A stretch of 64,000 nucleotides of DNA, taken from assembly GCA_036002045.1 (NCBI GenBank), contig DASYTT010000121.1, positions 95 through 64,094 on the forward strand. Direction: 5' to 3'. The translations under genes and the position numbers were made by a program. This DNA is from Gemmatimonadales bacterium (GTDB lineage Bacteria > Gemmatimonadota > Gemmatimonadetes > Gemmatimonadales > GWC2-71-9). The notes under the pieces are model-generated. The model was given only the letters and a program-made list of their open reading frames with translations, was not told the origin of the DNA and did no database searches. Shown here in pieces: positions 32,647 to 48,329 of this stretch (position 1 is the first letter of the stretch; every line of letters starts with the position of its first letter).

Positions 32647-33440
32647 CAGCGCTCCTCCTTCACCATCGTCCCGGGATCGACCGATACGTCATTGCGCCGG
32701 ATCTCGAAGTGCAGATGCGGGGCGGAGGACCGGCCGCTGTTGCCGCTCAGGGCAATGACCTCACCGGCGCGCACCGTCATTCCCTGAATTGCAATAATGC
32801 GCGACAGATGGCCGTACTTCGACTGATACCCTTCGGGGTGCTCGAGCAGCACGAAATTGCCGTATTCCTCCTGGGCCCCCGTTTGCAGCACCACTCCACC
32901 TCCGGCTGCGCGGACGATGCTTCCGATCGGCACCGCAATGTCGATGCCGGGATGTTCCTCTTCGCTCCCCCCCGCCACCGCCTGGCCCCGGGTGACGTAT
33001 CCGCGCTCATCCAGCGGCCAATGGCGCGGTGGAGAGGGCTCGGATTCGTACCGCGGTCCGGCGCCCGGGAGACCGGCGAAGATTGCGGGCGCCACCAGCC
33101 GGGCGCCGCTCAACGTGACGCGGTCGGGGACGATATCGGCCCCCACCATCCGGCGCAGTTGCTCGTAATTGGACTCGACGCTATCCAGTGCGGCGGCAAG
33201 CTCCCGGATCCGCAGCTTATCGCCCCGGAGCTGTTCGACTTCTCGCGACAAGGAAGGAACGCGCGCCGCCTGCCGTGCGATGGGGCCATAGAAGGCTATC
33301 CCCAGCACCAGCGCGATGGTGGCTGCAACACCGACCACCAAGGCGCCGCGCAGGACCCAGAGCGGAATCCGGTAGGTTCGCGCCTGCAGGGCCCCATCCC
33401 GCTGCACGATGACCGAAACGGCGCGCTTCCCGAGGTTCAT
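32646..33440 (-). CDS. M23 family metallopeptidase (LytM-type) with N-terminal TM anchor
   Basis: Track ORF. HPGIDIAVPIGSIVRAAGGG...YGHLS...GNSGRSSAPHLHFEI. Confidence 0.85.
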   Translation of the reverse strand: MNLGKRAVSVIVQRDGALQARTYRIPLWVLRGALVVGVAATIALVLGIAFYGPIARQAARVPSLSREVEQLRGDKLRIRELAAALDSVESNYEQLRRMVGADIVPDRVTLSGARLVAPAIFAGLPGAGPRYESEPSPPRHWPLDERGYVTRGQAVAGGSEEEHPGIDIAVPIGSIVRAAGGGVVLQTGAQEEYGNFVLLEHPEGYQSKYGHLSRIIAIQGMTVRAGEVIALSGNSGRSSAPHLHFEIRRNDVSVDPGTMVKEER

Positions 33441-34342
33441 CCTTCGAAGGGCTTACCCAGGATCAGCTCGAGCAACCGAGCCAGATCGTCGTTGGAGTAG
33501 TAGTGGATGGTCACGGCCCCGCGGCCTCGGCGGCGGGCGGTGATGCGGACGTCCGTCTGCAACCGCTTGCGCAGCGCATCCTCGACGAGCCGGATGTCCG
33601 CGCTCGGATTGCGGACCTCTGCCCGCGGCCGGCGGAGGGTTTTTCGGGCAGGCGCGGCGGTTTGCAGCTGCTCGCCGCGTACTCGCGCCTCGAGATCCCG
33701 CACCGACCATTCGGCGGCTGCGCATTCTCGGGCTAGCCGGGTGAGCTCCTGCGGATCCGAGAGCGCGAGGAGCGCGCGCGCGTGACCCTCGGACAACTTG
33801 CGCTCCTCGAGGAGTTGCTGCACGTCATCGGGAAGCCGGAGCAGTCGCAGCGTGTTACTCACAGTCGAACGATCCTTGCCGACCAGCCGTGCGACCTCAT
33901 GCTGCGGAAGCGTGAACTCCTGCATGAGCTGCTGGTAGCCCCGTGCCGCGTCGAGGGGGGAGAGGGCGTCGCGCTGCAGGTTCTCGATCAGCGCAAGCGT
34001 CAGGAGCGAGCGGTCGTCAACTTCCTTGATGACCGCTGGCACGTTCTTCCAGCCCAGCCGCTGCACCGCGCGCCAGCGCCGCTCTCCGGCGATCAGCTCG
34101 TAGCGCCCCGCGCCGTCCGGCTGGGGACGCACGACGACCGGTTGCAGCAGCCCGGAGGCCTCGATGGAGTCGGCCAGCTCCTTGAGCTGTGCCTCGTCGA
34201 ACTGGCGCCGCGGCTGATAGGGATTCGGTCGGATCGCCGCGACGGGGAGCTCTTTGAGCCCGCCGCCCGCCTGAGCCGCTTCGCGCGTGAGGGGTCCCAG
34301 CAGGGCCTCGAGTCCGCGTCCCAACCGCTTGGTCTCGGTCAC
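33437..34342 (-). CDS. parB: Chromosome partitioning protein ParB
   Basis: Track ORF 33437..34594 trimmed to GTG 34342, which forms a GTGA overlap with the parA stop. (V)TETKRLGRGLEALLG, IRPNPYQPRR, GERRWRA and HTH LVGKDRSTVSNTLRLLRLP are present. Confidence 0.9.
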   Translation of the reverse strand: MTETKRLGRGLEALLGPLTREAAQAGGGLKELPVAAIRPNPYQPRRQFDEAQLKELADSIEASGLLQPVVVRPQPDGAGRYELIAGERRWRAVQRLGWKNVPAVIKEVDDRSLLTLALIENLQRDALSPLDAARGYQQLMQEFTLPQHEVARLVGKDRSTVSNTLRLLRLPDDVQQLLEERKLSEGHARALLALSDPQELTRLARECAAAEWSVRDLEARVRGEQLQTAAPARKTLRRPRAEVRNPSADIRLVEDALRKRLQTDVRITARRRGRGAVTIHYYSNDDLARLLELILGKPFEG

Positions 34343-35172
34343 AATACCTCCGGTACACTGCGGGTTACGCCGTGCGGTAACTCGAGGTCGTCGCTCAGCT
34401 CTCCGGATTCCGCGCGGCGCAACAGCTCCTGCGCGACCCCCAGGTAACTCTTGGCTCCCACCGATTGCACGTCGTACATCAGGATCGGCTTGCCGAAGCT
34501 GGGCGCCTCTGCCAGCCGCACGTTGCGGGGGATGACCGTGCGGAACATCTTCGGCCCGAAATACTCCTTGGCATCTTTCGCCACCTGCCGACACAGATTG
34601 AGCCGAGAGTCGTACATGGTGAGCAGCACGCCATCCAGGGCTAGCTCAGGGTTGAAGTTCTGCTGGACCAGGCGAATCGTGTTGAGCAATTGCGAGATGC
34701 CTTCGAGCGCATAGTACTCACACTGGATCGGGATAATCACGCCGTGCGCGGCGGCGAGGACGTTAAGGGTGATCAGCCCGAGCGAGGGAGGACAATCGAT
34801 GATGATGTAATCGAAGGCCGGGAGCACCGGCCGCAGCGCCTCGCGCAGCCGAGCTTCCCGGCTGTCGACATTCACGAGCTCGAGTTCGGCACCAACCAGA
34901 TCCTGGGTGGCGGGCAGGATCGCCAGGTAGGGCAGTTCGCTATCCTGCTGGACCGCGCTCTCGGCGGGACGCCCATCCACGAGCACATCATAGAGAGAGG
35001 GGCGCGAGGGATCCTTGGGAACCCCCACCCCGCTGGTGGCGTTCCCTTGTGGATCGGCATCGACTAGCAGGGTCCGCCGTTCCGCGGTCGCCAGCGAGGC
35101 GGCCAAGTTGACCGCAGTGGTCGTCTTGCCGACGCCGCCCTTCTGATTGGCGATCGCGATGGTTCGGGCCAT
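34339..35172 (-). CDS. parA: Chromosome partitioning ATPase ParA/Soj
   Basis: Track ORF. Deviant Walker A IAIANQKGGVGKTTT. DADPQGNAT, IIIDCPPSLG. Confidence 0.95.
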   Translation of the reverse strand: MARTIAIANQKGGVGKTTTAVNLAASLATAERRTLLVDADPQGNATSGVGVPKDPSRPSLYDVLVDGRPAESAVQQDSELPYLAILPATQDLVGAELELVNVDSREARLREALRPVLPAFDYIIIDCPPSLGLITLNVLAAAHGVIIPIQCEYYALEGISQLLNTIRLVQQNFNPELALDGVLLTMYDSRLNLCRQVAKDAKEYFGPKMFRTVIPRNVRLAEAPSFGKPILMYDVQSVGAKSYLGVAQELLRRAESGELSDDLELPHGVTRSVPEVL

Positions 35173-35292
35173 TATTGGATTGGTAGCTAAATCCTAGTAT
35201 TATAAAGCGTTACAGGCAAATGCCATGAAATGAATCATAAATTTACTAGGTTAGATCCATCAATATAGGACCCAAGCTTGGATCTGTCAGGC

Positions 35293-35308
35293 AATTTCAC
35301 GTGAAACC
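35293..35308. other. parS: parS-like centromere site
   Basis: AATTTCACGTGAAACC compared with the canonical TGTTTCACGTGAAACA. The palindromic core TTTCACGTGAAA is perfect. Confidence 0.75.
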
Positions 35309-35380
35309 TACCATTTAAACCCAGCCCAATCCTTCGCAGACCTAAATGAAGCATCGACCAGATTCCGTCGGATCCGGTTC

Positions 35381-35396
35381 GTTTTCACGTGAAACA
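35381..35396. other. parS: parS site
   Basis: GTTTTCACGTGAAACA matches the canonical TGTTTCACGTGAAACA at 14 of 16 positions. It lies 12 nt downstream of the mnmG stop. Confidence 0.85.
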
Positions 35397-35408
35397 GACT
35401 ACTGGGGA

Positions 35409-37283
35409 TTATTTCTGAGCGCGGAGGCTTCTGCCGCGAAATTTGATTACCTCGACGACCAGATTCTGCAAATCACTTGGGGATACACCGGGGATCCGGC
35501 CTGCTTCCCCCAAGCTGCGAGGACGACGTTGATCCAGCTTCTCACGTGCCTCCGTGGAGAGACTCTCGACTCCGGCAAATACAAGCCCAGCGGGAATCTC
35601 AAACTCTTCAAGTTTACTCAAGCGTTCTGCGGCTTCCCTTTCGCGCTGGATATAGCCTCCGTAGCGGAGCTCGATCGAGGCCCACTCAGCCGCCTCCGCT
35701 CCCTCGGCGTTATCGGCAGCCCGAAGCAACTTTTCGAGCTGCACTTGGGGGCGTCGAGCCAGCTCAGCCACACGAACTGGCTCGGTGATCCCAGGGCCAG
35801 AGGTCTCCCGCAGAATGGGATTCGCCAACTCGGGAGTAATGGCTGACTGGTGGGCGAACGCCAGTACTCGATCCTCGGCTTCCAATCGGGCGCTGGCAGT
35901 GCGCTCTTCCTGCTCCGAGAGCAGTCCCAAGCTCTCGGCGATCGGATACAGCCGGCGCAGCGCATTGTCCTGTCGCAACAGGAGCCGGAATTCCGCTCGC
36001 GAGGTAAAGAGGCGATAGGGCTCGTCGACTCCTCGGCTGACCAAATCGTCCACCAAGACCCCCAGAAAGGCCTGATCCCGCCGGAACACGACCGGCGCCT
36101 TCTGAAGCGCGGCCGCCGCCGCATTAAGGCCGGCGACGACTCCCTGGCCAGCTGCCTCCTCATATCCTGTTGTGCCATTGACTTGGCCCGCAAAATAGAG
36201 TCCCTCTATTCCGCGAACCTGAAGAGTCGTCGTGAGCTGCGTCGGAGGGAAGTAGTCATACTCGATCGCATACCCCGGGCGGGTCATCTCCACTTGTTCG
36301 AGACCTGGGACCGAGCGCAAATAGGCCAGCTGGACCTGCGGCGGTAGCGAGGTCGAAAGCCCGTTGACATAAAGCTCCGACGTGTCGAGTCCCTCAGGCT
36401 CCAGGAAAACCTGGTGACGTGCGGCGTGCGGGAAGCGCACGATCTTGTCCTCGATCGATGGGCAGTATCGTGGACCCCTGCCGCTGATCGCCCCCCCATA
36501 CATCGCCGACTCGCTCAGGTGCGCCGAGACGATCTCCCGCAGCCGCTCGGTGGTGTGGGTGAGGTAACAGGGCAACTGCTGCGGGTGCTCCAGGCGCTCG
36601 TAGAAGGAGAACCAGTACGGCTCAACCTCCCCGTCTTGGCGCAGGAGCCGGTCCAGCTGAACCGTCCGACCATCTACTCTTGGGGGGGTTCCAGTCTTGA
36701 AGCGTTCGATCGTAATGCCAAGTGCCGCAACGGCTTGGGAGATTTCACCAGCCGGTGCCTCCCCCGCCCGACCCGCCGGAATCCGCGTGGTAAGGCCTAC
36801 CCGGATCTCCCCGCGGATGAACGTCCCGGCGGTGAGCACAATCGCTCTGCCGCGGTAGCGGCGTCCGTCGCTCGTCTCCACCCCGGCGACTCGGCCGCCC
36901 TCGAGTAGAAAGCGGGCGACTGTGCCTTGGGCAAATCCCAGCCGCGCCAGCCGTTCCAGTTGCGAGCGAACCGCGCGCCGGTAGAGTCCCCGATCGCACT
37001 GGGCACGCGGCGACCAGACTGCAGGGCCCTTGGAGCGATTGAGCATCCGGAATTGGATCCGGGCAAGGTCGGTCGCTCGGCCCATAATTCCGCCCAATGC
37101 ATCCACTTCGCGCACCACCGTGCCCTTGGCAATGCCCCCGATAGCCGGATTGCAGGACATCTGCCCAATGGTTTCCAGGTTCTGCGTCAGCAACAAGGTG
37201 CGCACTCCGGAGCGCGCTGCCATCGCGCACGCTTCGGCCCCCGCATGCCCGCCGCCAATGACGATCACGTCGTATTCGTGCAT
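35409..37283 (-). CDS. mnmG: tRNA uridine-5-carboxymethylaminomethyl(34) synthesis enzyme MnmG (GidA)
   Basis: Track ORF. YDVIVIGGGHAGAEA, GQMSCNPAIGGIAKG, PRYCPSIEDK and full-length colinearity. Confidence 0.97.
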   Translation of the reverse strand: MHEYDVIVIGGGHAGAEACAMAARSGVRTLLLTQNLETIGQMSCNPAIGGIAKGTVVREVDALGGIMGRATDLARIQFRMLNRSKGPAVWSPRAQCDRGLYRRAVRSQLERLARLGFAQGTVARFLLEGGRVAGVETSDGRRYRGRAIVLTAGTFIRGEIRVGLTTRIPAGRAGEAPAGEISQAVAALGITIERFKTGTPPRVDGRTVQLDRLLRQDGEVEPYWFSFYERLEHPQQLPCYLTHTTERLREIVSAHLSESAMYGGAISGRGPRYCPSIEDKIVRFPHAARHQVFLEPEGLDTSELYVNGLSTSLPPQVQLAYLRSVPGLEQVEMTRPGYAIEYDYFPPTQLTTTLQVRGIEGLYFAGQVNGTTGYEEAAGQGVVAGLNAAAAALQKAPVVFRRDQAFLGVLVDDLVSRGVDEPYRLFTSRAEFRLLLRQDNALRRLYPIAESLGLLSEQEERTASARLEAEDRVLAFAHQSAITPELANPILRETSGPGITEPVRVAELARRPQVQLEKLLRAADNAEGAEAAEWASIELRYGGYIQREREAAERLSKLEEFEIPAGLVFAGVESLSTEAREKLDQRRPRSLGEAGRIPGVSPSDLQNLVVEVIKFRGRSLRAQK

Positions 37284-37426
37284 GGCCGAAAGCTAAGGGA
37301 TCAGGATTCAGCGCGCGGCTCTGCTGCCAGCGGCCAATAGCCAAGAGCCGCGAGCCAACGTAAGTTCTCGCCGTACCGGATAGCGCAGTTTGACCTTGAG
37401 CCCTGGCAATTTAGGGAGGTTCACGC

Positions 37427-38259: not shown

Positions 38260-40815
38260 GTGGCAATGATTCCGAGGCGGAGTTTCCCGCCCGCGCCCCT
38301 ATGCGGTACGGCTACCGTGCTGCTGGTAACTCTCCTCGCCATGCCCAGCTCAGGCGCAGCGCAAGCGGACTCTTCCCGTCGCTCCCCGGTCCGCCGGGCC
38401 GACCACGATCGCGATAGCGTAACGGTGATTCCGCACAGCGCGTTTGCGGTGGGCGGACTCCACCGGTTTCTGCTGGGAAACACCTACCGTCCACTTTGGA
38501 CGAAGCCGATCCGGATCCGCGTCGCCGATCTCGGGGGGGTCGAGGGCGGCCTTACCGCGGTGAAGCGAAGCAGCGCCGACGCAAGCCGCCCCTTCATGTT
38601 CCAGGCCGCCAATGGCAGCACCTTCGGCTTTCGAGCCCTCGTCAAGGACGCAACCCTGGACTGGCCCCCGAAGCTGCGCACCGCCGCCGCGAGGAAGCTC
38701 GCGCAGGATCAAATCAGCGGCACCGTGCCAGGCGGACCCTTGGCAATCGAGGTGCTCCAGCACGCGGCCGGGTTGATCCATCCCGATGTCCAGCTAGTGG
38801 TACTCCCGGACGATCCGCGGCTCGGGGAATGGCGCGCCGACTACGCCGGGCGCCCAGGTATTCTGGAGCAGCGCCTGCACGGCTCCGACGAGAATCCGGA
38901 AGAAGTGAAGGGAGCTCGCGAGCTGCTGGACAGCAAGGACTTGTTCGAGCGCCTGCGAACCGACGGCGCCAGCAGAGTCGACGCTCGGGCCTACCTGACC
39001 GCGCGTCTGGTGGACCTCCTCATTGGTGACTGGGATCGCCATGAAGGACAATGGACCTGGGCTCGCTTCGACGATGCGGCAGGTCACCGCTGGGTCCCTA
39101 TCCCCACCGATCGCGACTGGGCGTTCACACGTCTCGATGGTCTGCTCTGGTCCCTGGCCCGTTTCGCGGAGCCGAAGTTCACCAAATTCGACAGCCGTTT
39201 TAGCGGCCTCGGCGGACTCACCAAGCGCTCTACCGCGGTGGACCGGCGGCTGCTGGTGAGCCTCGATCGTGCCGCATGGGATTCAGTGACCAAACGCCTG
39301 GTCAGCCGCCTCAACGACAAGGTGATTGAACGCGCGATGGCAGCGCTTCCGCCGGGCTACGATCGCAACGTTGTAGCCTGGCTCACCGAGGCCTTGCAGC
39401 ACCGCCGCGATGAATTGCCCAGCATCGCGAACGCCTTCTATCGCCAGCTCGCAGACGTCGTGGAGATCTGGGCGACGGAAGGAGCCGATCGGATCGAGCT
39501 CGCCCAAGCGCGCGACAGCAGCCTCACGCTGACGGTGGAGCGCATGGCGGGACAGAGCCGCTGGCGTCGGCACTTCCTGCCGGCCGAGACGCAAGAGATT
39601 CGTGTCTACACGCTGGGCGGCGCCGACCGAGTGACTGGGGCGAGCACCGAGGCGATTCGGATCCGCATTGTCGATGACGGGGGCGGGCCGCTCTCTATCG
39701 CGACCTCGATTACCGCTTCGGTGTATGACTCGACGCGGACGTTTAATCCGCCCGGCAAACCCCACAGCCCCGAGGCGATGTTGCGCGACTGGGGCGCGAC
39801 GCTCGGTATCGCGCCCTGGCTGGACTACTGGACCAACGTGGGGTTGGTATTGGGCGGGGGGCCGATGCTGACTCGCTACGGCTTCCGTCGGGCTCCTTTT
39901 GCGTCGCAGCTGGCCGTCCGGGCGGCCTATGCCACGGGGATCACCGGTATCAACGTGGATTTCAGGGGCGACTTTCGATTCGAATCTCCAGGACGCCGCC
40001 TGCTCCTCAGGGGAACTGCATTCAGCTCGGACGCGGTCCGCTACTTCGGACTGGGCAATGAAACCAAGCCGGTCGAGCCGGTCCCCTTCTATGTAGTGCG
40101 CCGGAACAGCTACAGCTTCGAGCCGAAGCTGTCGCTCGGAATGAAGGGGAAGACCGAATTCTCGATCGGAGGTTTCGTGCGCAACTCCGACACGGACCAG
40201 CGGCGTCAGACGCTGGCGGCCGCCGAGCGGCCCTATGGCTTCGGGAACTTCACCGAAGTCGGGGCCAGTGCCGGCTGGGAACTGGACCTGCGCGACAATC
40301 CAGGCTACCCGAACTTGGGTCTACGCGTTCAACTGAATGGAGAGTTTTTCCCCGCCATAGCCGACGTCGCAGCCTCTTTCGCGGTTTTCGAGGGCACGAT
40401 CGCCGGCTTCGCGACGGCGGGGTTCCTGCCGGGCAGGCCCACCCTCGCCCTCCGAGCTGGTGCCAGCAAGGACTGGGGCGACTCGCCCTTCTTCGAAGCT
40501 CCTTCTCTCGGCGGACGTCACTCCCTCAGAGGATTTCTTCCCGGGCGCTTCATCGGGGACGCTGCCTTGTATGGAAGCGGCGAGCTTCGGCTTGACCTCG
40601 GCGCGTCTCCGGTAATCCCGGGGGAGTGGGGGATCTTCGGGCTCGGCGACCTCGGACAGGTCTACCTGGACGGCGAAGCTTCGAGCACCTGGCACAGGGG
40701 ATGGGGTGCCGGTCTCTGGCTCGCGATCGTCGAGCGGAAGAACACGGTCACTTTCACTTATGCGCGGAGTGGTGAGGCGGCCCGAATCTACGCCACATTC
40801 GGGTTTCATTTCTAA
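38260..40815 (+). CDS. Large outer-membrane protein: uncharacterised N-terminal domain + Omp85/surface-antigen-type beta-barrel (paralogue 1)
   Basis: Track ORF with a signal-like N-terminus. Conserved blocks LLIGDWDRHEGQWTW and VPIPTDRDWAF are present. The C-terminus has an alternating beta pattern, GGRHSLRGF..RFIGD and a terminal GFHF. Confidence 0.8.
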   Translation: MAMIPRRSFPPAPLCGTATVLLVTLLAMPSSGAAQADSSRRSPVRRADHDRDSVTVIPHSAFAVGGLHRFLLGNTYRPLWTKPIRIRVADLGGVEGGLTAVKRSSADASRPFMFQAANGSTFGFRALVKDATLDWPPKLRTAAARKLAQDQISGTVPGGPLAIEVLQHAAGLIHPDVQLVVLPDDPRLGEWRADYAGRPGILEQRLHGSDENPEEVKGARELLDSKDLFERLRTDGASRVDARAYLTARLVDLLIGDWDRHEGQWTWARFDDAAGHRWVPIPTDRDWAFTRLDGLLWSLARFAEPKFTKFDSRFSGLGGLTKRSTAVDRRLLVSLDRAAWDSVTKRLVSRLNDKVIERAMAALPPGYDRNVVAWLTEALQHRRDELPSIANAFYRQLADVVEIWATEGADRIELAQARDSSLTLTVERMAGQSRWRRHFLPAETQEIRVYTLGGADRVTGASTEAIRIRIVDDGGGPLSIATSITASVYDSTRTFNPPGKPHSPEAMLRDWGATLGIAPWLDYWTNVGLVLGGGPMLTRYGFRRAPFASQLAVRAAYATGITGINVDFRGDFRFESPGRRLLLRGTAFSSDAVRYFGLGNETKPVEPVPFYVVRRNSYSFEPKLSLGMKGKTEFSIGGFVRNSDTDQRRQTLAAAERPYGFGNFTEVGASAGWELDLRDNPGYPNLGLRVQLNGEFFPAIADVAASFAVFEGTIAGFATAGFLPGRPTLALRAGASKDWGDSPFFEAPSLGGRHSLRGFLPGRFIGDAALYGSGELRLDLGASPVIPGEWGIFGLGDLGQVYLDGEASSTWHRGWGAGLWLAIVERKNTVTFTYARSGEAARIYATFGFHF

Positions 40816-40846
40816 GGGGAGATTATTCAAACCAGGGGGTGCCTGC

Positions 40847-40868
40847 GGGGGACCGAAGACCGTCCCCC
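40847..40868 (+). terminator. Hairpin between the two Omp85-like paralogues
   Basis: GGGGGAC (40847-40853), an 8-nt loop, then GTCCCCC (40862-40868). Confidence 0.35.
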
Positions 40869-40908
40869 AGTGTAGAGGGCGCGCGCCATTCGGCGCTGCG
40901 CCCCGCTG

Positions 40909-43437
40909 GTGAAGTGCCAGCGCTCACCCTTGCAGGCGGGTGTCATGGTCGTAGCCGGCATCGCGCTCCTGACTTTGCTGCAAGCTGCACAACTCAGCGA
41001 ACCGGTTGTGCCTGGCAGCAAGGTCGCGCTGAAGCCGGGGCCTCAATACGAAGCGGGATGGTTTCGCCGCTTCCTGTTCGGCAAGGGCTGGCGGCAACTG
41101 TGGATGACGGAGATCGAAGTGCCGGTTGCGGCCCTGGACACGCTTCGGGGAGGGCTCACGGCCTATGATCGTGGGGGCGGAGGCCAAACCTTGGCGCTCC
41201 GCTTTTGTACGCCTGACGGCCGCATCTATCAGTTTCGTTCCGTCGACAAGAACCCGGGCCAATTGGCGAAGGGGTTTCGCCGTACCCCTCCAATCCGCTG
41301 GCTCTATCACAATCACATCAGTGCGATGTTCCCCGCCGGGGCGCTCGCCGTGGGAGGATTAGAGGAGGCCGCCGGCTTGCCGACGACCGAACGCTGGCTG
41401 GCCGTCATGCCCGACTCCCCGCGCGTGGGCAAATGGCGGGAGGATTTCAAAGGCATGCTGGGCACCTTCGAGCGCCGTCACATTCCCAGCGAAGAGTGTT
41501 TTCCCGAAGTGCACGAAGCGGAAGTGATCGCATCGGACACTCTGCTGGCGCGGATTCACGCGGATGGAGTGAACTGGGTTGACCAAAACAGCTACCTGAC
41601 AGCGCGCCTCCTCGATCTCCTCGTCAACGATCCCGACCGGCACGCCGAGCAATGGAGCTGGATACGCTCAGATCGTGATGGCCTGCACTGGTGGGTCCCG
41701 ATCCCGCGCGATCGGGATTGGGCCCTCGCCCACAACGATGGCCTCATCTACAACGTGGCCAGGCGGGTTTTCCCAGTTTGGATCAAGTTCGGCCCCGAAT
41801 ACCGCAGCATTCGGGGGCTCACGATGAAATCGGAATCACTCGACCGACTGCTCCTGGCCGGCATGGACCGTCGGGCGTGGGACACGGTGGCGGCGCACCT
41901 CCGCAGCCGGTTGAGCGACGAGACCATCACTGCGGCGGTCGCTACTCTTCCAGCTGAGTTCGACGACTCAACGACTGGTTATCTAGCGAAGAGCCTCATG
42001 AGCCGGCGGGATGCCCTGCCGGGAGCAGCGGACCGGTTCTATCGCGGGCTCGCTCAGGTGGTGGATATCCACGGCTCGGAGGGCTCGGAGCTCGTTGAGG
42101 CCAGTCGGGCACCTGATGGCTCGCTGGTGCTGGAGATGTTCGCGGCCAATCGCACTCCGGTGTGGCGGCGGCGATTTGTGCGGGAGGAGACCAGCGAGAT
42201 CCGGTTGTACTTCCGGGGCGGGGCCGACAGCATGCGGATCCGCGGTCACAAGGACGGGATCCCGCTCCGAGTGATCACCGGAGGCGGCGCCGACCTCGTG
42301 GCGGATTCGACGGGGGGCAGTGCTCTCCGGGTCTACGACGATTCGGGCAGTTCAACGGTCCAGGCAACTGGCCCGGTGCAACGCATCATGCGCCCCCCGG
42401 AGGCACTTCCCCACCGCGATTGGGGACATCGTATCAGTATGGCGCCCTGGATCGGCATCCGTCCGGAGCTTGGCGCCATCGTTGGAGCGGGACCCGTGTT
42501 CTACAGCTACGGGTTCCGCAAAGTACCCTACCAATCGCGGGTTGCCCTCCGCTTGGCGACCACGACCAAGGCGGGTGAGCTCAACGCCGACTTCAGGGCC
42601 GACATCCGCTTTGAGCGGCCCGACCGGCGCGTGCTCATCAAGGCGGCGGCCTTGAACGCGGACGTGATCCGGTTCTTCGGATTTGGAAACGAGACGACCC
42701 GGGCTCCCAGCAGCGGCTTTCACAACGTGATTCAGCAGGCCTATTCCCTCGAGCCGGTAGTCGAGCTTGGGATTGGCGGGCCGGCGCGATTCGAGCTCGG
42801 AGGACTGCTGCGCTGGTCGGAGACGGATGAGCAGCGGGTTACTCTGCTTACCGTCGAGCGGCCCTATGGAACCGGATCCTTCACCGAAGCCGGGGCCAGC
42901 GCGGCCTTCGTCATCGACTCCCGGGACGATGAGGATCTGCCCACCAAGGGGGTGACCCTCGAGCTCAGGGGCCGGGTGTTCCCCTCGATCCTGGACGTAC
43001 GCTCGGCATTTGGAACGATTGGGTTGGTGGGAACCTCGTATCACACCGCGCGCTCCATGCCGATGCAGCCCACCCTCGCGTTTCGGATCGGCGCCCAGCG
43101 AGCCCTCGGCACCCCGCCATTCTTCGAGGCGCCCGAGCTCGGCGGCTGGCTGAACTTCCGCGGTCTCACCACCCGTCGCTTCATCGGCGATGCCTCGCTC
43201 TATGCCAACGTCGATGTGCGGCTCAATCTCGGCGACTTGCTGGATGTCGGAAACTGGGGAGTGCTCGGGCTGGGCGACGTGGGACGCGTCTTCCAGGACG
43301 GCGAGAGCTCCACGCGCTGGCACTACTCACTGGGTGGAGGAGTCTGGACGACCGTCTCGAGCCATGTGTTTACGGCGACGCTTGCCAGCGGCGGCGAAAA
43401 GCTCCGCTTCTACGTCAAGAGCGGCTTTCACTTCTGA
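40909..43437 (+). CDS. Large outer-membrane protein, paralogue 2 of 38260..40815
   Basis: Track ORF (GTG 40909; ATG 40945 also possible). GGGGQTLALRF..YQFRSVDKN, LLVNDPDRHAEQWSW, VPIPRDRDWAL. C-terminal barrel ends with FYVKSGFHF. Confidence 0.8.
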   Translation: MKCQRSPLQAGVMVVAGIALLTLLQAAQLSEPVVPGSKVALKPGPQYEAGWFRRFLFGKGWRQLWMTEIEVPVAALDTLRGGLTAYDRGGGGQTLALRFCTPDGRIYQFRSVDKNPGQLAKGFRRTPPIRWLYHNHISAMFPAGALAVGGLEEAAGLPTTERWLAVMPDSPRVGKWREDFKGMLGTFERRHIPSEECFPEVHEAEVIASDTLLARIHADGVNWVDQNSYLTARLLDLLVNDPDRHAEQWSWIRSDRDGLHWWVPIPRDRDWALAHNDGLIYNVARRVFPVWIKFGPEYRSIRGLTMKSESLDRLLLAGMDRRAWDTVAAHLRSRLSDETITAAVATLPAEFDDSTTGYLAKSLMSRRDALPGAADRFYRGLAQVVDIHGSEGSELVEASRAPDGSLVLEMFAANRTPVWRRRFVREETSEIRLYFRGGADSMRIRGHKDGIPLRVITGGGADLVADSTGGSALRVYDDSGSSTVQATGPVQRIMRPPEALPHRDWGHRISMAPWIGIRPELGAIVGAGPVFYSYGFRKVPYQSRVALRLATTTKAGELNADFRADIRFERPDRRVLIKAAALNADVIRFFGFGNETTRAPSSGFHNVIQQAYSLEPVVELGIGGPARFELGGLLRWSETDEQRVTLLTVERPYGTGSFTEAGASAAFVIDSRDDEDLPTKGVTLELRGRVFPSILDVRSAFGTIGLVGTSYHTARSMPMQPTLAFRIGAQRALGTPPFFEAPELGGWLNFRGLTTRRFIGDASLYANVDVRLNLGDLLDVGNWGVLGLGDVGRVFQDGESSTRWHYSLGGGVWTTVSSHVFTATLASGGEKLRFYVKSGFHF

Positions 43438-43468: not shown

Positions 43469-44803
43469 TCAGGCAGTCCTGACCCACCTCACCATGTCGC
43501 GGAACGTAGCGCGCTTCCCGTACGACAGAATTCCCACCCGGTAGACCCGTCCGGCCACCCAGGCCACGCCCAACACGCTCAGAATCATCACCGCGATGGC
43601 GGAGAGAACCTCCCAAATCGGGAGCGGCGTGATCGAATAACGCACCGGCAACGCAAAGGGTGCCCAGAAGGGAATGAAGGTGATCACTTTGCCCAGCGTC
43701 CCGTTCGGATCGTTGACCAGCGCGAAAATGGTCATGATGCCGAGCATGATGGGCAACGTCACCGGCATCATGAGCTGTTGGGTATCCTGAACCGTGCTGG
43801 ACATCGCTCCAACCGCCGCAAACATGGCTGCATAGAAAAGGAAGCCGAGAATGAACAGCACCAGGAAGATGAGCACAAGCGCCGGGCTGACGGCGGAGAG
43901 GAAGGATGCCCCGCCGCTGCTGGTGGCCGCGGCGGCGGCGCCACCGTCGTCCATCATCCGCCCCATGAACGAGGCTCCGAACGACCCGAGGTACAGCGCC
44001 GTCGCCGCCCAGATCGAGAGCTGAAACAGCCCGACCAGGCCCACGCCGATCACCTTGCCGAGCATCAGCTCAAACGGGCGAAGGCTGGATGCGAGGACTT
44101 CGATGATGCGGCTCGATTTTTCCTCGACGACCGAGGTCATGACCTGGGAGCCGTAAATCATCAGCGCGAGATAGAGGATGAACACCATGCCGTAGGCCAG
44201 CCCGAATGTTGCGGCACCGCTTTGGCCGGTAAGTCTCCCATCCGCCACCTTTTGGGTGACGAGGTCGACCCTCCCGATCGCCTGAAGCACCACCCCGGGA
44301 TCGACTCCAAGTCGCTCGAGCCGTTCACGCTGCACCACCGGGCGGAGGATTTCCTCCAAACGTCGCATTTCCGCCGGACTCCCCACGTTGGCTCCATAGT
44401 ACTGGATCCGGCCGTTCTGGAGCGTCTCTTCGGTCAGCACCAGCACGCCGTCGAACGCCTCGGCCTGCGCGCGTTTCGATAGCCCGGTGCGGGCGAGCGC
44501 CGAGTCCCGTACCGCCTCTACCCGGCCGACTGCGGGCAGGCGTTCCACATCGAACGGCAGCGGCGCGGCGGAATCTCTGCGCCGGTTGCTGGCCAACGCA
44601 TCCGCAACCCTCGCCGTGAAGGTGCCTTCCACCCCCTCCACCACTGCGATCCGTTTGGTCCCGCTCGCGCGCCGGAGCAGCAGGGCGGGCAGCACCGTGA
44701 ACATCGCCATGAGCAAGGGGAACAGCATCGTGGAGATGATGAACGCCCGCGTCCGCACGCGCTCGACGAACTCGCGCCGGATGACCGCGAGAATCTTATG
44801 CAT
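43469..44803 (-). CDS. ABC-2 type transporter permease (NatB-like)
   Basis: Track ORF. MHKILAVIRREFVERVRTRAFIISTMLFPLL, a large extracytoplasmic loop, then 5 C-terminal TM helices. Confidence 0.8.
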   Translation of the reverse strand: MHKILAVIRREFVERVRTRAFIISTMLFPLLMAMFTVLPALLLRRASGTKRIAVVEGVEGTFTARVADALASNRRRDSAAPLPFDVERLPAVGRVEAVRDSALARTGLSKRAQAEAFDGVLVLTEETLQNGRIQYYGANVGSPAEMRRLEEILRPVVQRERLERLGVDPGVVLQAIGRVDLVTQKVADGRLTGQSGAATFGLAYGMVFILYLALMIYGSQVMTSVVEEKSSRIIEVLASSLRPFELMLGKVIGVGLVGLFQLSIWAATALYLGSFGASFMGRMMDDGGAAAAATSSGGASFLSAVSPALVLIFLVLFILGFLFYAAMFAAVGAMSSTVQDTQQLMMPVTLPIMLGIMTIFALVNDPNGTLGKVITFIPFWAPFALPVRYSITPLPIWEVLSAIAVMILSVLGVAWVAGRVYRVGILSYGKRATFRDMVRWVRTA

Positions 44804-45755
44804 GGGTCACCTCGTGCGCCGGCGCGACGGCTGCCTCTGCTCCAACCTTGGCGATGAAGATGGACTGGAGCGACGCCTCGACCACTTCGAAGCGGGCCAG
44901 CCCGACGTCGTTCTCCACCAGCGCGCGAAGCAGCCGGTCGGGATCGGAGTTTCCCGTCAGCTGCACTTCCGCGCTGGCGCCGTAGTCATCCACTCGCTCA
45001 ACCAGCGCGCGGTCGTTCAGTACGCGGGCCGCGCGGTCGCCGTTCCTGGTGAAGCTGAGCGCGATATGCCGCCCGCCGAACTCCCGCTTCACTCCTGCCA
45101 GCGATCCGTCGACCACCTTCTGTCCGCGCGCGATAATCACGATGTGGTCGCACATCCGCTCGGCCTGCTCCATGATGTGGGTCGAAAAGAGCAGGGTCTT
45201 CCCGGTGCGCGCCAGCTCGACCACCACGTCCTTCATCACCTGGCTGTTGACGGGGTCGAGCCCGCTGAATGGCTCGTCCAGCAAGAGCAGGTCGGGATCG
45301 TGCAAGAGAGCGCCGATGAACTGGACCTTCTGCTGCATGCCCTTGGACAACTCCTCGACCTTTTTCATCGTCCAGTCCGAGATGCCAAGCCGTTCGAGCC
45401 AGACACCGGCCTTCCGGCGTGCCACGGAGCGGGCGATTCCCTTGGTCTCGCCCAGGAAAGCGAGGTGATCCCCCACGCGCATCTTCTTGTAGAGCCCGCG
45501 CTCTTCGGGGAGATAACCGATCCGCGCCGAGAGGTCGCGGCTCGCCGCCTCGCCCCCGAAGAGGGTGATGCGCCCCTCGTCGGGGGTGAGAATGTTGAGG
45601 ATCATGCGGATCGTGGTGCTCTTGCCGGCGCCGTTGGGACCGAGCAGGCCGAAGATCCCGCCGGCGGGGACCTCCATGGAGAGCCGGTCGACGGCAGTGT
45701 GGCCGGCGAAGCGCTTGGTGACGCCCTCAAGGCGGACCACAGTGCCGCTGTTCAT
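44796..45755 (-). CDS. ABC transporter ATP-binding protein (NatA-like, C-terminal DUF4162-type domain)
   Basis: Track ORF. GLLGPNGAGKSTT, LSKGMQQKV, LLLLDEPFSGLD. 8-nt overlap with the permease gene. Confidence 0.9.
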   Translation of the reverse strand: MNSGTVVRLEGVTKRFAGHTAVDRLSMEVPAGGIFGLLGPNGAGKSTTIRMILNILTPDEGRITLFGGEAASRDLSARIGYLPEERGLYKKMRVGDHLAFLGETKGIARSVARRKAGVWLERLGISDWTMKKVEELSKGMQQKVQFIGALLHDPDLLLLDEPFSGLDPVNSQVMKDVVVELARTGKTLLFSTHIMEQAERMCDHIVIIARGQKVVDGSLAGVKREFGGRHIALSFTRNGDRAARVLNDRALVERVDDYGASAEVQLTGNSDPDRLLRALVENDVGLARFEVVEASLQSIFIAKVGAEAAVAPAHEVTHA

Positions 45756-45759
45756 GCGG

Positions 45760-46068
45760 TCAGGCTCCGGATGGTCGGACGGGGGGTTCCTTCCAGTCGC
45801 TCAGGCGGGTGATCGGGCCGGCCTCTTTGGCAGGCAGAATGACGAACGGCTCGTCGACGCGGATCCCGAACTTGCGAAGCCGTTCGATCCAGTCTCCGCG
45901 GGACAAGGCGGCCGTGGCGGGATCGTGGATGGCGACGTCGTGGAGCACGACGCCCCGCTCATTGGTTTCGTGATAGCGTCCCACCCAGCTGCGGCCCGAA
46001 GCACCTTCCACCACGACAGTGACGCCGTGGAGCGCTTCGTGGCCGGGATGGAAAACGTGGCCGGACAT
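45760..46068 (-). CDS. Hypothetical protein
   Basis: Track ORF (MSGHVFHPGHEALHGVTVVVEG...). No family recognised. No obvious SD; the leader is C-rich. Confidence 0.5.
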   Translation of the reverse strand: MSGHVFHPGHEALHGVTVVVEGASGRSWVGRYHETNERGVVLHDVAIHDPATAALSRGDWIERLRKFGIRVDEPFVILPAKEAGPITRLSDWKEPPVRPSGA

Positions 46069-46076
46069 AGCAGTGA

Positions 46077-46104
46077 GGGGTGAGGGGTGAGGGGTGGAAC
46101 GGGG
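46077..46104 (+). other. Canonical G-quadruplex motif (G4-N3-G4-N3-G4-N6-G4)
   Basis: GGGGTGAGGGGTGAGGGGTGGAACGGGG read directly on the plus strand, in the 50-nt spacer between genes 46119..46568 and 45760..46068. Confidence 0.6.
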
Positions 46105-46118
46105 AAGGTAATAACGTC

Positions 46119-46568
46119 TTACCGCTTACCTCTCACCGCTTCGGTGCCGCAGTACCGCTCGAACGCCGCAATCAGATCCTGCGCGATCGCCTCCGGCCCC
46201 TTGCCCTCGATCATGTGGCGGTGGACGAAGTGCACCACCTCACCATCCGAGAGCAATGCTACCGAAGGTGAGCTGGGCTGATACTCCGCGAAATAGCTCC
46301 GCGCCCGCGCCGCGGCCTCCATATCCTGTCCGGCGAAGACCGTATACAGGTGCTGCGGCTTGACCGGATGCCGGAGCGCGAGGCTCAGCGCGGGCCGGGC
46401 CGCCCCCGCAGCACATCCGCACACCGAGTTCACGAACACCAGCGCAGTTCCCTCCCCAGGCCCGAGTGCCGCATCCACCTCCGCAATGCTGCGAAGCTCC
46501 CGGACCCCCAGGCGAGTGACCTCCTCACGCATGGGTTTTACCATCATCTCGTTATAGGGCACTCCCAC
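46119..46568 (-). CDS. BrxA/BrxB-family bacilliredoxin (DUF1094/YphP-like)
   Basis: Track ORF. LVFVNSVCGCAAGAARP is the CGC redox motif. Length and flanks are typical of YphP/YqiW. Confidence 0.8.
   Translation of the reverse strand: MGVPYNEMMVKPMREEVTRLGVRELRSIAEVDAALGPGEGTALVFVNSVCGCAAGAARPALSLALRHPVKPQHLYTVFAGQDMEAAARARSYFAEYQPSSPSVALLSDGEVVHFVHRHMIEGKGPEAIAQDLIAAFERYCGTEAVRGKR
46126..46142. repeat. 17-nt repeat copy TTACCTCTCACCGCTTC (GAAGCGGTGAGAGGTAA on the coding strand)
   Basis: Identical 17-mer also at 46621-46637, and a 15-nt version at 46602-46616. Here it encodes the bacilliredoxin C-terminus EAVRGK. Confidence 0.85.
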
Positions 46569-46601
46569 CTCCCTCTTCGGTTGGGTCCTCGTCTCACCCT
46601 C

Positions 46602-46637
46602 TTACCTCTCACCGCTCTGGTTACCTCTCACCGCTTC
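46602..46637. repeat. Two tandem copies of the TTACCTCTCACCGCT(TC) repeat at the sufU 3' end
   Basis: 46602-46616 and 46621-46637, separated by 4 nt. The distal copy supplies the sufU TAA stop and the proximal copy encodes EAVRGN. Confidence 0.85.
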
Positions 46638-47054
46638 TAGCGCCTGTTTCATCGCATGCCAGCTGAGCGTCGCGCACTTCACCCGAATCGGGAAAGCGCG
46701 CACGCCCTTGAACACCTCCAGCTTCGGGGGAAGCCCGCTGCCACCGCTGGCACCTACCGTCACGAGCTCGTGGAACTTCTCGAATAGTCCTTCCACTTCC
46801 GCCACGCTCTTTCCTTTGATGATCTGGGTCATCATCGAGGCACTCGCCTTGGAGATCGCGCAGCCTTGTCCCAGGAACGCAGCATCGCTGACCCGGTCTC
46901 CTTCCAGCTTGAGCCAGATCTCATACATATCCCCGCAGAGCGGGTTACGCCCCTCGGCATGGGTCGTCGCGTCCTCGAGCCTGTGAAAATTCCGCGGAGT
47001 GCGGTTGTGATCGAGGATGACGCTCTGATAGAGCTCGTCGAGCTCGCTGCTCAT
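46602..47054 (-). CDS. sufU: SUF system Fe-S cluster scaffold SufU (NifU/IscU-like)
   Basis: C-terminal 150 aa of track ORF 46602..47624, starting at ATG 47054 with an ATGA overlap onto sufS. YQSVILDHNRTPRNF, NPLCGD, GQGCAISKASASMM, VKCATLSW. Confidence 0.9.
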   Translation of the reverse strand: MSSELDELYQSVILDHNRTPRNFHRLEDATTHAEGRNPLCGDMYEIWLKLEGDRVSDAAFLGQGCAISKASASMMTQIIKGKSVAEVEGLFEKFHELVTVGASGGSGLPPKLEVFKGVRAFPIRVKCATLSWHAMKQALEAVRGNQSGER

Positions 47055-48322
47055 CCCAACACCGCTCTGGCTCGGCCGAGCCCAGCGACCAGGGCATCGA
47101 TCTCGGCGGGAGTGTTGTAGGCCCCGAACGAGGCACGCAGGGTAGCCGAGACTCCAAAGCGCCGCATCAAGGGTTGGGCACAGTGATGCCCGGCCCGGAC
47201 GGCGATGCCCAGAGTGTCGAGCACCGTGCCGGCATCGTGGGGATGGATCCCTTCCAGCACCACCGACATGACGCTGACCCGATCCGCGCCTTCGCCAAGA
47301 ATCCGAAGCCCTGGCACGTCGGCGAGCTTGCGGCCCGCCTCGGCGACCAGATCCTGCTCGTACGCCACCAGGGCCTCCCAGTCCCACGTCATCAAGTAGT
47401 CCAGCGCCGCTCCCAGCCCCACCACCTCCGCGATCGGCGGGGTGCCGGCTTCGAAGCGTTCCGGCGGCGGCGCATAGCTGCTGCGCTCGATCTGGACCTC
47501 GCGAATCATCCCCCCCCCGCCCTGCCATGGCGGCATCGCTTCGAGCAGCTCGCGCTTCCCGTACAGCAGGCCGATCCCGGTGGGTCCGTAGAGTTTGTGA
47601 CCGGAACAGGCGAAGAAATCGCAATTCATGGCCGCGAGGTCGAGGCGGAGATGCGGGGCCGACTGCGCCCCGTCCACGACCACTACCGCGCCGACCTCGT
47701 GGGCCATCGCGCAGATGGCGTTGATGGGGTTGATGGCTCCCAGGACATTGGAGGCATGGGTCACCGCCACGATCCGGGTGCGCGACGTCAGCAGCGATTC
47801 GAACGCCGCGAGGTCCAGTCCGCCTGATTCCGTCACGGGAATCGCCTTGATGGCCGCACCGGTCCGTTCGGCGATGAGCTGCCAGGGAACCAGATTGGAG
47901 TGGTGTTCCATCTCGGTGACGAGGATTTCATCGCCGGGCCGGAGCACCGAGCCGCCATAGCTCTGGGCTACGAGGTTGAGGGCGGCGGTCGTGCCGGAGG
48001 TAAAGACGAGCTCGGCGCTCGAGCCGGCGCCCAGGAACTGCGCGGCCAGCTCTCGCACCCGCTCGTACGCCAGGGTCGCTTCCTGGCTCAGCGCATGCAC
48101 GCCGCGATGCACGTTCGCGTTGCCGGTTTCGTAGTAGCGTGTCATCGCCGCGATGACAGGCCCGGGCTTCTGGGCTGTCGCGGCATTGTCGAGATAGACC
48201 AGCGGACGCCCACGCACCTCGCGCGCGAGGATCGGAAAATCCGCACGGATCCGTTCGACATCCCACGCCCCGGCGCGCCCAACGCGGGATGCTCCTGGAG
48301 GAACCGTCGCCAGCGGCGTCAT
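47051..48322 (-). CDS. sufS: Cysteine desulfurase SufS
   Basis: Track ORF trimmed to ATG 48322. YLDNAATAQKP, HHSNLVPW, SGHKLYGPTGIG (PLP Lys), RAGHHCAQP (active-site Cys). Confidence 0.95.
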   Translation of the reverse strand: MTPLATVPPGASRVGRAGAWDVERIRADFPILAREVRGRPLVYLDNAATAQKPGPVIAAMTRYYETGNANVHRGVHALSQEATLAYERVRELAAQFLGAGSSAELVFTSGTTAALNLVAQSYGGSVLRPGDEILVTEMEHHSNLVPWQLIAERTGAAIKAIPVTESGGLDLAAFESLLTSRTRIVAVTHASNVLGAINPINAICAMAHEVGAVVVVDGAQSAPHLRLDLAAMNCDFFACSGHKLYGPTGIGLLYGKRELLEAMPPWQGGGGMIREVQIERSSYAPPPERFEAGTPPIAEVVGLGAALDYLMTWDWEALVAYEQDLVAEAGRKLADVPGLRILGEGADRVSVMSVVLEGIHPHDAGTVLDTLGIAVRAGHHCAQPLMRRFGVSATLRASFGAYNTPAEIDALVAGLGRARAVLG

Positions 48323-48329
48323 GGCTGGA

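Follow-up and report, generated by a model that had tools for sequence, protein, structure and literature searches.

The analysed window, a 64,000-nt stretch of contig DASYTT010000121.1 from a soil Gemmatimonadota bacterium, contains two neighbouring genes on the + strand, 38260..40815 and 40909..43437, which encode products of 851 and 842 AA (copy 1 and copy 2). BLASTP alignment of the two products gives 41% identity and 57% positives over 817 aa (E = 0), which confirms that they are tandem paralogues. Each protein is predicted to consist of five parts: a signal sequence, a ~265-aa kinase-like domain, a helical bundle, a β-repeat module and a 16-stranded Omp85 barrel with no POTRA domain. Copy 2 probably starts at the ATG at 40945 (830 aa), as in the database gene call that is 100% identical to it, rather than at the upstream GTG. 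The features, with motifs verified by translation, are as follows.

38260..40815 (+), copy 1 gene (851 aa from GTG), encoding an SRPF-subtype kinase-like/Omp85 protein
38260..38367 (+), copy 1 predicted signal sequence (residues 1-36, ...GAAQA)
38413..39207 (+), copy 1 kinase-like domain (residues 52-316), boundaries transferred from the copy 2 model through the BLASTP alignment
38569..38595 (+), copy 1 SSADASRPF, in the position of the Gly-rich loop
38629..38649 (+), copy 1 FRALVKD
39025..39060 (+), copy 1 catalytic-loop-like GDWDRHEGQWTW
39106..39126 (+), copy 1 TDRDWAF (possible DFG-equivalent D-R-D block)
39796..40815 (+), copy 1 Omp85 barrel (residues 513-851), with loop-6 LRGF at 40525-40536 and a C-terminal GFHF
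40847..40868 (+), intergenic hairpin GGGGGAC-N8-GTCCCCC, followed by a second stem-loop (about 40869-40907)
40909..43437 (+), copy 2 gene (842 aa from GTG; probable start ATG 40945, 830 aa), encoding the canonical kinase-like/Omp85 protein
40945..40992 (+), copy 2 predicted signal sequence (MVVAGIALLTLLQAAQ)
41017..41808 (+), copy 2 kinase-like domain (residues 37-300 of the 842-aa ORF)
41173..41190 (+), copy 2 Gly-rich loop GGGGQT between β1 and β2
41236..41250 (+), copy 2 RSVDK, with R110 at the end of β3 (tentative assignment) and K114
41629..41661 (+), copy 2 catalytic-loop-like DPDRHAEQWSW (D241, D243, R244, H245, Q248, W251)
41710..41718 (+), copy 2 D268-R269-D270 (possible DFG-equivalent)
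41809..42054 (+), copy 2 helical bundle carrying R366 and R367
42058..42387 (+), copy 2 β-repeat module (about 11 short strands, GGxxD-type repeats; consensus RLYLxGGxDxxxxRG...GGxGxD), in the place where POTRA domains sit in BamA/TamA
42427..43437 (+), copy 2 16-stranded Omp85 barrel, with loop-6 FRGL...RRFIGD and a C-terminal GFHF

The signal sequences were read from the sequence and a hydrophobicity heuristic only; for copy 2 an N-terminal helix (2-14) is seen in the model, whereas the database call for copy 1 starts at M28 and would lack the signal sequence. The hairpin between the genes has a 7-bp GC stem, an 8-nt loop and no U-tract, and the whole spacer is not clearly more structured than shuffled sequence (z = -1.75). 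A promoter and terminator scan found nothing useful around the genes and no terminator at the hairpin, and no tRNA or Rfam element lies in the window.

Predicted structure of the paralogues

To examine the C-terminal region, we first compared both proteins with family models. Copy 1 scored 26.6 bits against Pfam Omp85 (PF01103), above the cut-off of 24, and copy 2 scored 14.7 bits, below it; NCBIfam Omp85_fam (NF047779) gave 63 and 81 bits, below its whole-protein cut-off of 200. The full-length AlphaFold2 model of copy 2 (pLDDT 91.6, pTM 0.83) shows 16 strands at 495-826, and the Foldseek top hits for the barrel are Sam50, TamA, BamA, Toc75 and FhaC (probability 1.0), with TM 0.69-0.72 on barrel-only TamA. 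The loop-6 motif is LRGF in copy 1 and FRGL, a variant, in copy 2, with (L/V)RG(F/Y) in the family majority, and the C-terminal residue is F in 248 and Y in 36 of 314 barrel forms. No POTRA-like element was observed in the secondary structure of the model and no POTRA hit was obtained in Pfam.

The N-terminal region was not named by any sequence library searched. No hit was found in Pfam (including PF00454, PF07804, PF08757 and the like) at E <= 10 for the N-domains of seven members, or for the N-region of both proteins in NCBIfam and PADLOC, and searches of PDB sequences by phmmer and by profile gave only spurious hits, to ribosomal protein L20 and FliG, at E > 0.2. At the same time, the AlphaFold2 model of the copy 2 N-domain is confident (pLDDT 94, pTM 0.93), and all 25 best Foldseek hits in the PDB are kinase-like folds, with probability 0.94-1.00 and TM about 0.5 on the target for the best of them. 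These include CtkA (probably a HipA-like kinase), PI4KII-alpha as the second-best hit, HipA, CotH and Fam20C. A viral library (BFVD) gave the same classes, PI3/4K and CotH, with E down to 4e-7 as compared with 1e-5 in the PDB. The order of elements, with a Gly-rich loop between β1 and β2 (strands 50-57 and 60-66 of the N-domain model), the D-R-H-x-x-Q loop after a helix, two strands and then D-R-D, fits the kinase topology. Alignment of the family profile with E. coli HipA by hhalign was not significant (probability 0.07), so that its register is only weak corroboration.

The preliminary description had proposed, from the sequence alone, an Omp85-type barrel joined to an unplaced domain that echoes PI3K/PI4K/HipA-type folds, and had mentioned Bacteroidota barrel proteins of the GDWDRHxDQW type. 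Every testable element of it held, and such Bacteroidota proteins exist. Three refinements are needed: the His of DRH is not essential, the Gly-rich block of copy 1 did not simply decay, and enzymatic activity remains an inference.

Conservation, subtypes and gene neighbourhoods of the family

The family has at least 3,745 sequence clusters, mainly in Gemmatimonadota, Bacteroidota and Chlorobiota, and occurs also in Ignavibacteria; cultured hosts such as Pontibacter, Pedobacter, Flectobacillus and Chlorobium limicola carry homologues. It also occurs as lipoproteins and as ~1,240-aa forms fused to a metallophosphoesterase. By heuristic, the N-termini look like signal peptides or carry lipoboxes in nearly all members. 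Conservation was assessed over 244 relatives in three architectures. R110, R233, W251, D268 and D270 are 100% conserved in every class, K114, D236, D241 and R244 are 96-100%, R269 is 97-100%, and R366 and R367 of the helical bundle are 92-100% in every class. Position 248 is always Q or N, while His245 is about 90% conserved, not invariant, and D243 is Ser in 38% of the standalone forms. In the Gly-rich loop, G89, G90, Q93 and T94 are each about 80-100% conserved in every class, and G91 varies more (57-88%). The same residue set is kept in barrel-less forms, so the constraint belongs to the domain itself.

Copy 2 is the canonical form. Copy 1 belongs to a monophyletic subtype in which the Gly-rich loop was replaced by a conserved motif, SRPF...FRALVKD; its orthologues (P0246-P0259 in our protein set) share these variant motifs. 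The idea that copy 1 needs an adjacent canonical partner was rejected, as two other loci carry a copy-1-type gene alone at the syntenic site, and so was the idea that the tandem pair is a recent one-off duplication.

Family genes repeatedly neighbour phosphate and polyphosphate genes. A metallophosphoesterase gene lies directly upstream in 16 loci, and PPK1 lies within 6 kb in 27 of 82 loci, across six of the eight taxon groups sampled. DUF4956 occurs in 16 loci, PF06977 in 30 and HD-PycTM in 29. These counts come from crude ORF calling and from loci that are not phylogenetically independent. The joining of a conserved kinase-type signature to a POTRA-less Omp85 barrel, with repeated linkage to PPK1, DUF4956 and phosphoesterases, points to an unexplored envelope process in phosphorus or polyphosphate handling. 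The window itself has none of these partner genes; the neighbours of the pair are a peroxiredoxin and an ABC-2 exporter, so the polyphosphate link may not apply to it.

Possible function of the kinase-like domain

Enzymes with a kinase fold are not expected in the periplasm or on the outer membrane, as no ATP pool is expected there, and Omp85 barrels are thought of as protein insertases or translocases that carry POTRA domains. The most likely reading, to which we assign a probability of about 0.55, is that each gene encodes an outer-membrane-anchored, phosphotransfer-type enzyme outside the cytoplasm, in which the POTRA-less barrel anchors a compact unit of an atypical protein-kinase-like domain (closest in fold to PI4KII, HipA/CtkA and CotH/Fam20), a helical bundle and a β-repeat module. 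We infer, without inspection of the pocket geometry, that this unit faces the periplasm, the default Omp85 topology, and that it is an active Mg2+-dependent phosphoryl- or nucleotidyl-transferase. The Gly-rich loop with R110 and K114 would hold the phosphate donor, D243 (or D241) would act as the base, and Q248 with D268 and D270 would bind metal. Because ATP is not expected in the periplasm, the donor or substrate may be polyphosphate or another phosphoester supplied by partner genes (PPK1, DUF4956, metallophosphoesterase) in the many relatives that have them. The remodelled donor-binding loop of copy 1 suggests a different ligand or a regulatory role. Against this reading stand the absence of a sequence-level relation to any kinase family in the libraries searched, the Arg rather than Lys at the β3 position (a tentative assignment), the Gln in place of the metal-binding Asn, the variable His245 and D243, and the missing Gly-rich loop of copy 1.

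A more speculative and improbable possibility is that the family is an ATP-independent phosphotransfer system outside the cytoplasm. PPK1 would make polyphosphate, which would reach the periplasm, perhaps through DUF4956, and the anchored kinase-fold domain would use it as phosphoryl donor or handle it as substrate, to phosphorylate envelope proteins or lipids or to thread or attach polyphosphate at the cell surface. The canonical and SRPF subtypes of the window would then form a division-of-labour pair.

Among the alternatives, a pseudokinase scaffold survives best, although we consider it unlikely. In this case the kinase-shaped domain would be a non-catalytic binding or structural module that took the place of POTRA domains, and the real activity would be that of the barrel, in protein or lipid insertion or translocation. 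The non-canonical residues, the lost Gly-rich loop of copy 1, the lack of ATP expected in the periplasm and the lack of sequence similarity to active kinases are consistent with this, and a recent preprint describes kinase-like scaffolds reused for non-catalytic roles (10.64898/2026.09.18.752743). Yet, three acidic and several basic residues are 96-100% conserved across three architectures, including barrel-less forms, some with lipoprotein signals, where no barrel function exists, and the fusion or adjacency with a metallophosphoesterase and the linkage with PPK1 point to chemistry on phosphates.

It is less likely still that the domain is a lipid kinase or lipid-modifying enzyme acting on outer-membrane lipids (phospholipid, inositol lipid, or lipid A/LPS phosphates) from the periplasmic face, like a membrane-tethered PI4KII. 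The PI4KII-alpha hit, the tethering of the domain to a membrane by a barrel or in some forms by a lipid anchor, and the metallophosphoesterase family, which appears to include lipid-A and sphingomyelin phosphodiesterases, would agree with this. However, protein kinases (CtkA, HipA, CotH, Fam20C) match equally well, PPK1 and DUF4956 point to polyphosphate rather than lipid, and no lipid-synthesis genes recur nearby.

A type Vd-like autotransporter, with the kinase-like unit exported to the cell surface or released by its own barrel, is similarly doubtful. Enzyme-plus-Omp85 fusions with an exported passenger are known (PlpD; PMC4104836), and CtkA and CotH, both among the structural hits, are presumably secreted kinase-fold proteins. 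In contrast, no POTRA domain and no long linker are predicted, the β-module runs into barrel strand 1 within about 13 residues, the whole model is compact, and barrel-less relatives do without any translocator. Finally, ordinary BamA/TamA-type assembly factors, as suggested by database names of relatives ('BamA/TamA family outer membrane protein', 'outer membrane protein assembly factor') and by the resemblance of the barrel to TamA, BamA and Sam50, are very improbable, given the lack of POTRA, a score of 13 bits against a cut-off of 297 for the TIGR03303 BamA model, and about 500 N-terminal residues that form a kinase-like unit unrelated to BamA or TamA.

Comparison with related systems

Literature searches combining Omp85 with kinase-like, metallophosphoesterase or polyphosphate kinase found no description of this domain, although we could not tell whether a Riemerella metallophosphoesterase (PMC8208144) is a family member; a 2026 preprint on kinase-like domain discovery does not mention it, and the TamL preprint does not discuss these proteins. 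The 'Metallo' and 'noNterm' Omp85 subfamilies (PMC4104836) are POTRA-less barrels found mostly in Bacteroidota and relatives. The ~1,240-aa relatives found here, with PF00149 plus a barrel, have the 'Metallo' architecture and share the kinase-like middle domain and the barrel with the window proteins, in which no PF00149 hit was obtained. In the parts consulted, that study calls PF00149 a metalloprotease and does not describe the ~450-aa region between it and the barrel; the predicted kinase-like fold of this region is the new element.

PlpD (patatin-POTRA-Omp85) likewise has an enzyme-type N-terminal domain fused to a 16-stranded Omp85 barrel, but it has a POTRA domain, exports its passenger and has a different enzyme fold. 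PI4KII-alpha, HipA/HipT and H. pylori CtkA are the best structural matches (E about 1e-5, probability 1.0) and have what appears to be the same order of elements, a Gly-rich loop, a D-x-H-x-x-N-type loop and then a metal-binding Asp after two strands. No sequence homology to them was detected, D-R-D stands in place of DFG/DNG, and the proteins described here are predicted to be membrane-anchored outside the cytoplasm, with added helical and β modules.

A published parallel exists in Gram-positives, where CotH, a polyphosphate polymerase and DUF4956 form a gene trio in pel loci (10.1101/768473; PMC12345266). There too an extracytoplasmic kinase-fold protein is encoded beside a polyphosphate-making enzyme and a DUF4956 membrane protein, and a trio of the kinase-like/Omp85 gene, PPK1 and DUF4956 recurs among the loci examined here. 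The family differs from CotH in giving no Pfam CotH hit, in having PPK1 instead of a VTC-type polymerase, and in its diderm hosts and barrel anchor. Fam20C, a structural hit at E about 1e-3 with no sequence relation, has a kinase fold that works outside the cytosol, but it is eukaryotic and located in the Golgi lumen, where ATP is imported.

Tandem paralogues with a predicted Omp85 barrel

To establish whether the two genes of the preliminary description are present and related, the reading frames were translated and the products compared. Both ORFs exist exactly as described, with the following coordinates:

38260..40815 (+ strand), copy 1, 851 aa
40909..43437 (+ strand), copy 2, 842 aa
40945, ATG, the most likely start of copy 2, giving an 830-aa product

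The two products are clear paralogues, 41% identical and 57% similar over 817 aa, and all of the sequence motifs listed in the preliminary description were confirmed by translation. The shorter product of copy 2 corresponds to the database protein P0001 and has the N-terminus MVVAGIALLTLLQAAQ. Copy 1, when read from its GTG start, has a signal-like N-terminus ending in GAAQA. The public gene call for copy 1 (P0245, 824 aa) starts at M28 and would lack this signal (window 38260-38340), while orthologues (P0246-P0248) are called with longer N-termini. Automated annotation of start codons in this family looks inconsistent. The window has about 65% G+C, its nearest relatives are Gemmatimonadales metagenome bins, and the public DNA runs in which it was found are soil metagenomes.

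Sequence models for the C-terminal barrel were weak but consistent. Pfam Omp85 gave 26.6 bits for copy 1 (cut-off 24) and 14.7 bits for copy 2, and NCBIfam Omp85_fam gave 63 and 81 bits on the last ~190 residues, below its whole-protein cut-off of 200. The question was settled by structure prediction: the full-length AF2 model of copy 2 (pLDDT 91.6, pTM 0.83) has 16 long strands between residues 495 and 826, and its best PDB matches are Sam50, TamA, BamA, Toc75 and FhaC, at probability 1.0, with TM reaching 0.69-0.72 on barrel-only TamA entries. The Omp85 loop-6 motif is present as LRGF in copy 1 and FRGL in copy 2, and both proteins end in GFHF. At the same time, no beta-alpha-alpha-beta-beta POTRA unit is predicted, and the BamA equivalog model scored 13 bits against a cut-off of 297.

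Predicted kinase-like fold and conservation of the N-terminal domain

None of the sequence libraries searched recognised the N-terminal region. To examine its fold, we built an AF2 model of residues 35-505 of copy 2 on 73 homologues, which was very confident (pLDDT 94, pTM 0.93). Foldseek against the PDB returned only protein-kinase-like folds at the top, namely H. pylori CtkA (E = 1e-5, TM 0.50-0.55 on the target), PI4KII-alpha (E = 2.5e-5), HipA and HipT, a bacterial Ser/Thr kinase (7VKC), CotH, Fam20C and Rio2. An independent viral library gave a PI3/4-kinase catalytic domain, CotH and other kinases.

The order of secondary-structure elements fits a kinase: three N-lobe strands with the Gly-rich GGGGQT between beta1 and beta2, Arg110 at the end of the third strand (probably beta3) with Lys114 just after it, helices and two more strands, a long helix carrying R233 and D236, the loop D241-x-D243-R-H-x-x-Q248, two strands, and D268-R-D270. 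This arrangement appears to match the D-R-x-x-D-N / D-x-H-x-x-N motifs of PI4KII-alpha and HipA followed by the metal-binding Asp. The only local alignment found by hhalign against E. coli HipA, which puts LLVNDPDRHAEQW on LIGATDGHAKNF, is not statistically significant and offers weak corroboration only. The kinase-like domain is followed by a helical bundle (about residues 300-382 of the 842-aa ORF) and a module of about 11 short strands with GGxxD-type repeats (about residues 384-493), which leads within about 13 residues into barrel strand 1.

To determine which residues are constrained, we aligned 244 family members to a profile of the N-domain and split them by architecture.

Conservation of N-domain residues (copy 2 numbering) among 244 family members split by architecture
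R110, R233, W251, D268, D270: 100% in every class
K114, D236, D241, R244: 96-100%
Q248: always Q or N
R269: 97-100%
E188: 92-97%
G89, G90, Q93, T94 of the Gly-rich loop: about 80-100% in every class (G91: 57-88%)
H245: about 90% in the barrel classes, 73% in standalone forms
D243: 99-100% in barrel-bearing forms, 61% in standalone forms (Ser otherwise)

The D-R-H-x-x-Q motif noted in the preliminary description is therefore real, but the fixed core is Asp/Arg/Lys/Trp rather than His. The same set is kept in forms without a barrel, so the constraint belongs to the kinase-like domain itself, which argues for chemistry rather than a mere scaffold.

Family distribution, gene neighbourhoods and possible function

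A profile of the N-domain found 3,745 representative clusters (at 50% identity) at E <= 1e-3 and 1,806 at E <= 1e-30. Among the 244 sampled members, 188 are kinase-like plus barrel proteins (~850 aa, the type present in the window), 27 are metallophosphoesterase (PF00149) plus kinase-like plus barrel proteins (~1,240 aa), 26 are standalone (~530 aa), and 3 are metallophosphoesterase plus kinase-like. They come from Gemmatimonadota including Longimicrobia, many Bacteroidota (Pontibacter, Rufibacter, Pedobacter, Flectobacillus, Chitinophagaceae, Rhodothermales), Chlorobiota (Chlorobium limicola), Ignavibacteria and one Myxococcales bin. By a simple heuristic, nearly all members have a hydrophobic secretion-type N-terminus and 13 of 37 standalone forms have a lipobox, indicating that the domain is outside the cytoplasm; most sampled forms have a barrel or a lipid anchor. 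Barrel-less family members in Bacteroidota (P0094, P0096, P0098-P0100, P0132, P0144 and others) carry lipoprotein signal peptides (for example ...LAGC, ...LTGC), and about 38% of them replace the DRH Asp with Ser (GDWSRR/GDWSRH). These may be a functionally distinct or inactive branch.

To examine whether family genes have recurrent partners, we clustered all flanking ORFs of 82 related loci and named the recurrent ones with Pfam.

Recurrent neighbours of family genes (number of loci out of 82)
PF06977 'SdiA-regulated' domain protein: 30; six of the eight taxon groups; typically directly upstream, mostly on the same strand
HD plus PycTM protein: 29; mostly Bacteroidota, mostly on the opposite strand just upstream
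PPK1 polyphosphate kinase: 27; Gemmatimonadota 12, Hymenobacteraceae 9, Longimicrobia 2, other Bacteroidota 2, Rhodothermales 1, Ignavibacteria 1
Separate PF00149 gene: 16; directly upstream in the loci inspected; the same domain is fused in the long forms
DUF4956: 16; almost all Gemmatimonadota
DUF6268: 11
His_Phos_1: 10

Gene orders vary, for example DUF4956 > Metallophos > KL-Omp85 (the kinase-like/Omp85 gene) > PPK1 in locus L026, DUF4956 > KL-Omp85 > KL-Omp85 > PPK1 in locus L013, and PPK1 > HD-PycTM > KL-Omp85 in locus L045. By our own rough estimate, not a computed control, a single-copy gene such as ppk1 would be expected within 6 kb in roughly 0.3% of loci by chance. ORF calling was crude, the loci are not phylogenetically independent, and the window itself has none of these partners. 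A parallel trio of secreted CotH, a polyphosphate polymerase and DUF4956 has been described next to Gram-positive pel loci (10.1101/768473; PMC12345266). In Bacteroidota the long metallophosphoesterase/kinase-like/Omp85 gene is usually preceded, mostly on the opposite strand, by a gene for an HD phosphohydrolase domain fused to a PycTM (Pycsar-effector-type) transmembrane domain (L054:3174-4457, L053:3174-4373, L062:2535-3728 and 26 other loci), a combination that is unusual outside defence systems.

Taken together, the models and alignments describe a POTRA-less Omp85 barrel carrying a compact kinase-fold unit with a conserved residue set that may be of kinase type, predicted to be outside the cytoplasm. 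We infer that the unit faces the periplasm, because the N-terminus of an Omp85 barrel does so by default, and that it performs metal-dependent phosphoryl or nucleotidyl transfer. Given the absence of periplasmic ATP and the partner genes elsewhere in the family, its donor or substrate may be polyphosphate or another phosphoester. For the window pair specifically the polyphosphate link is weaker, because its neighbours are a peroxiredoxin and an ABC-2 exporter. A non-catalytic scaffold is a less likely alternative, and a lipid kinase or a type Vd-like exported passenger are more doubtful still. An ordinary BamA/TamA paralogue is contradicted by the missing POTRA domain and by the N-domain fold.

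The 'Metallo' and 'noNterm' Omp85 subfamilies were defined by Heinz & Lithgow (PMC4104836), who, in the parts of that work consulted, did not identify the middle domain, and we found no paper that links Omp85 to a kinase-like fold or to PPK1. We classify the proteins studied here as a new family within the kinase-like fold class and a new Omp85 architecture, with an unexpected cellular location and a testable link to phosphate metabolism.

The gene pair and its surroundings in the window

Copy 2 is canonical. Copy 1 belongs to a monophyletic lineage, with orthologues from 82% down to about 47% identity, in which GGxxQT..LR became (A/G)SRPF, FRSxDK became FRALVKD, and RDRD became (T/S)DRD. All the acidic and basic core residues are kept. 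This is constrained divergence rather than the decay of the Gly-rich block proposed in the preliminary description. The syntenic slot suf - ABC-2 exporter - [gene] - mnmG - parAB holds different content in different Gemmatimonadales: only the canonical type is present in locus L001, and only the SRPF type in loci L084 and L085, in inverted orientation and without the peroxiredoxin. The SRPF subtype therefore does not need an adjacent canonical partner. A different Gemmatimonadales genome has its own tandem pair of kinase-like/Omp85 genes (L013:3287-8457), flanked by DUF4956 upstream and PPK1 downstream, and tandem duplication of this gene appears to have happened more than once.

The features between and around the two genes are as follows:

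40847-40868, hairpin in the 93-nt spacer between the copies
40869-40907, second, longer GC-rich stem-loop (GCGCGCGCC...GGCGCUGCGC), directly after the hairpin and just before the copy 2 GTG
45760-46068 (- strand), small ORF of 102 aa with no Pfam family
about 28900-37300, upstream part of a conserved housekeeping block (ABC ATPase, NIF3, Bmp, bactofilin, M23 peptidase, parB, parA and mnmG)
43469-51900 (approximate), downstream part of the same block (ABC-2 exporter plus the suf Fe-S operon)

The two stem-loops together fill most of the spacer. There is no U-tract and the folding energy is not clearly exceptional (z-score only -1.75). The small ORF sits between the ABC-2 ATPase gene and the Disulph_isomer/NifU/suf genes, and an ORF of 94-102 aa is called at the same position in L001, L002, L084 and L085 (related loci), so it is probably a real conserved gene of unknown function. 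The strongly conserved housekeeping block in which the pair sits also occurs in these four loci, and its parAB-mnmG context may mean that the region is near the replication origin.
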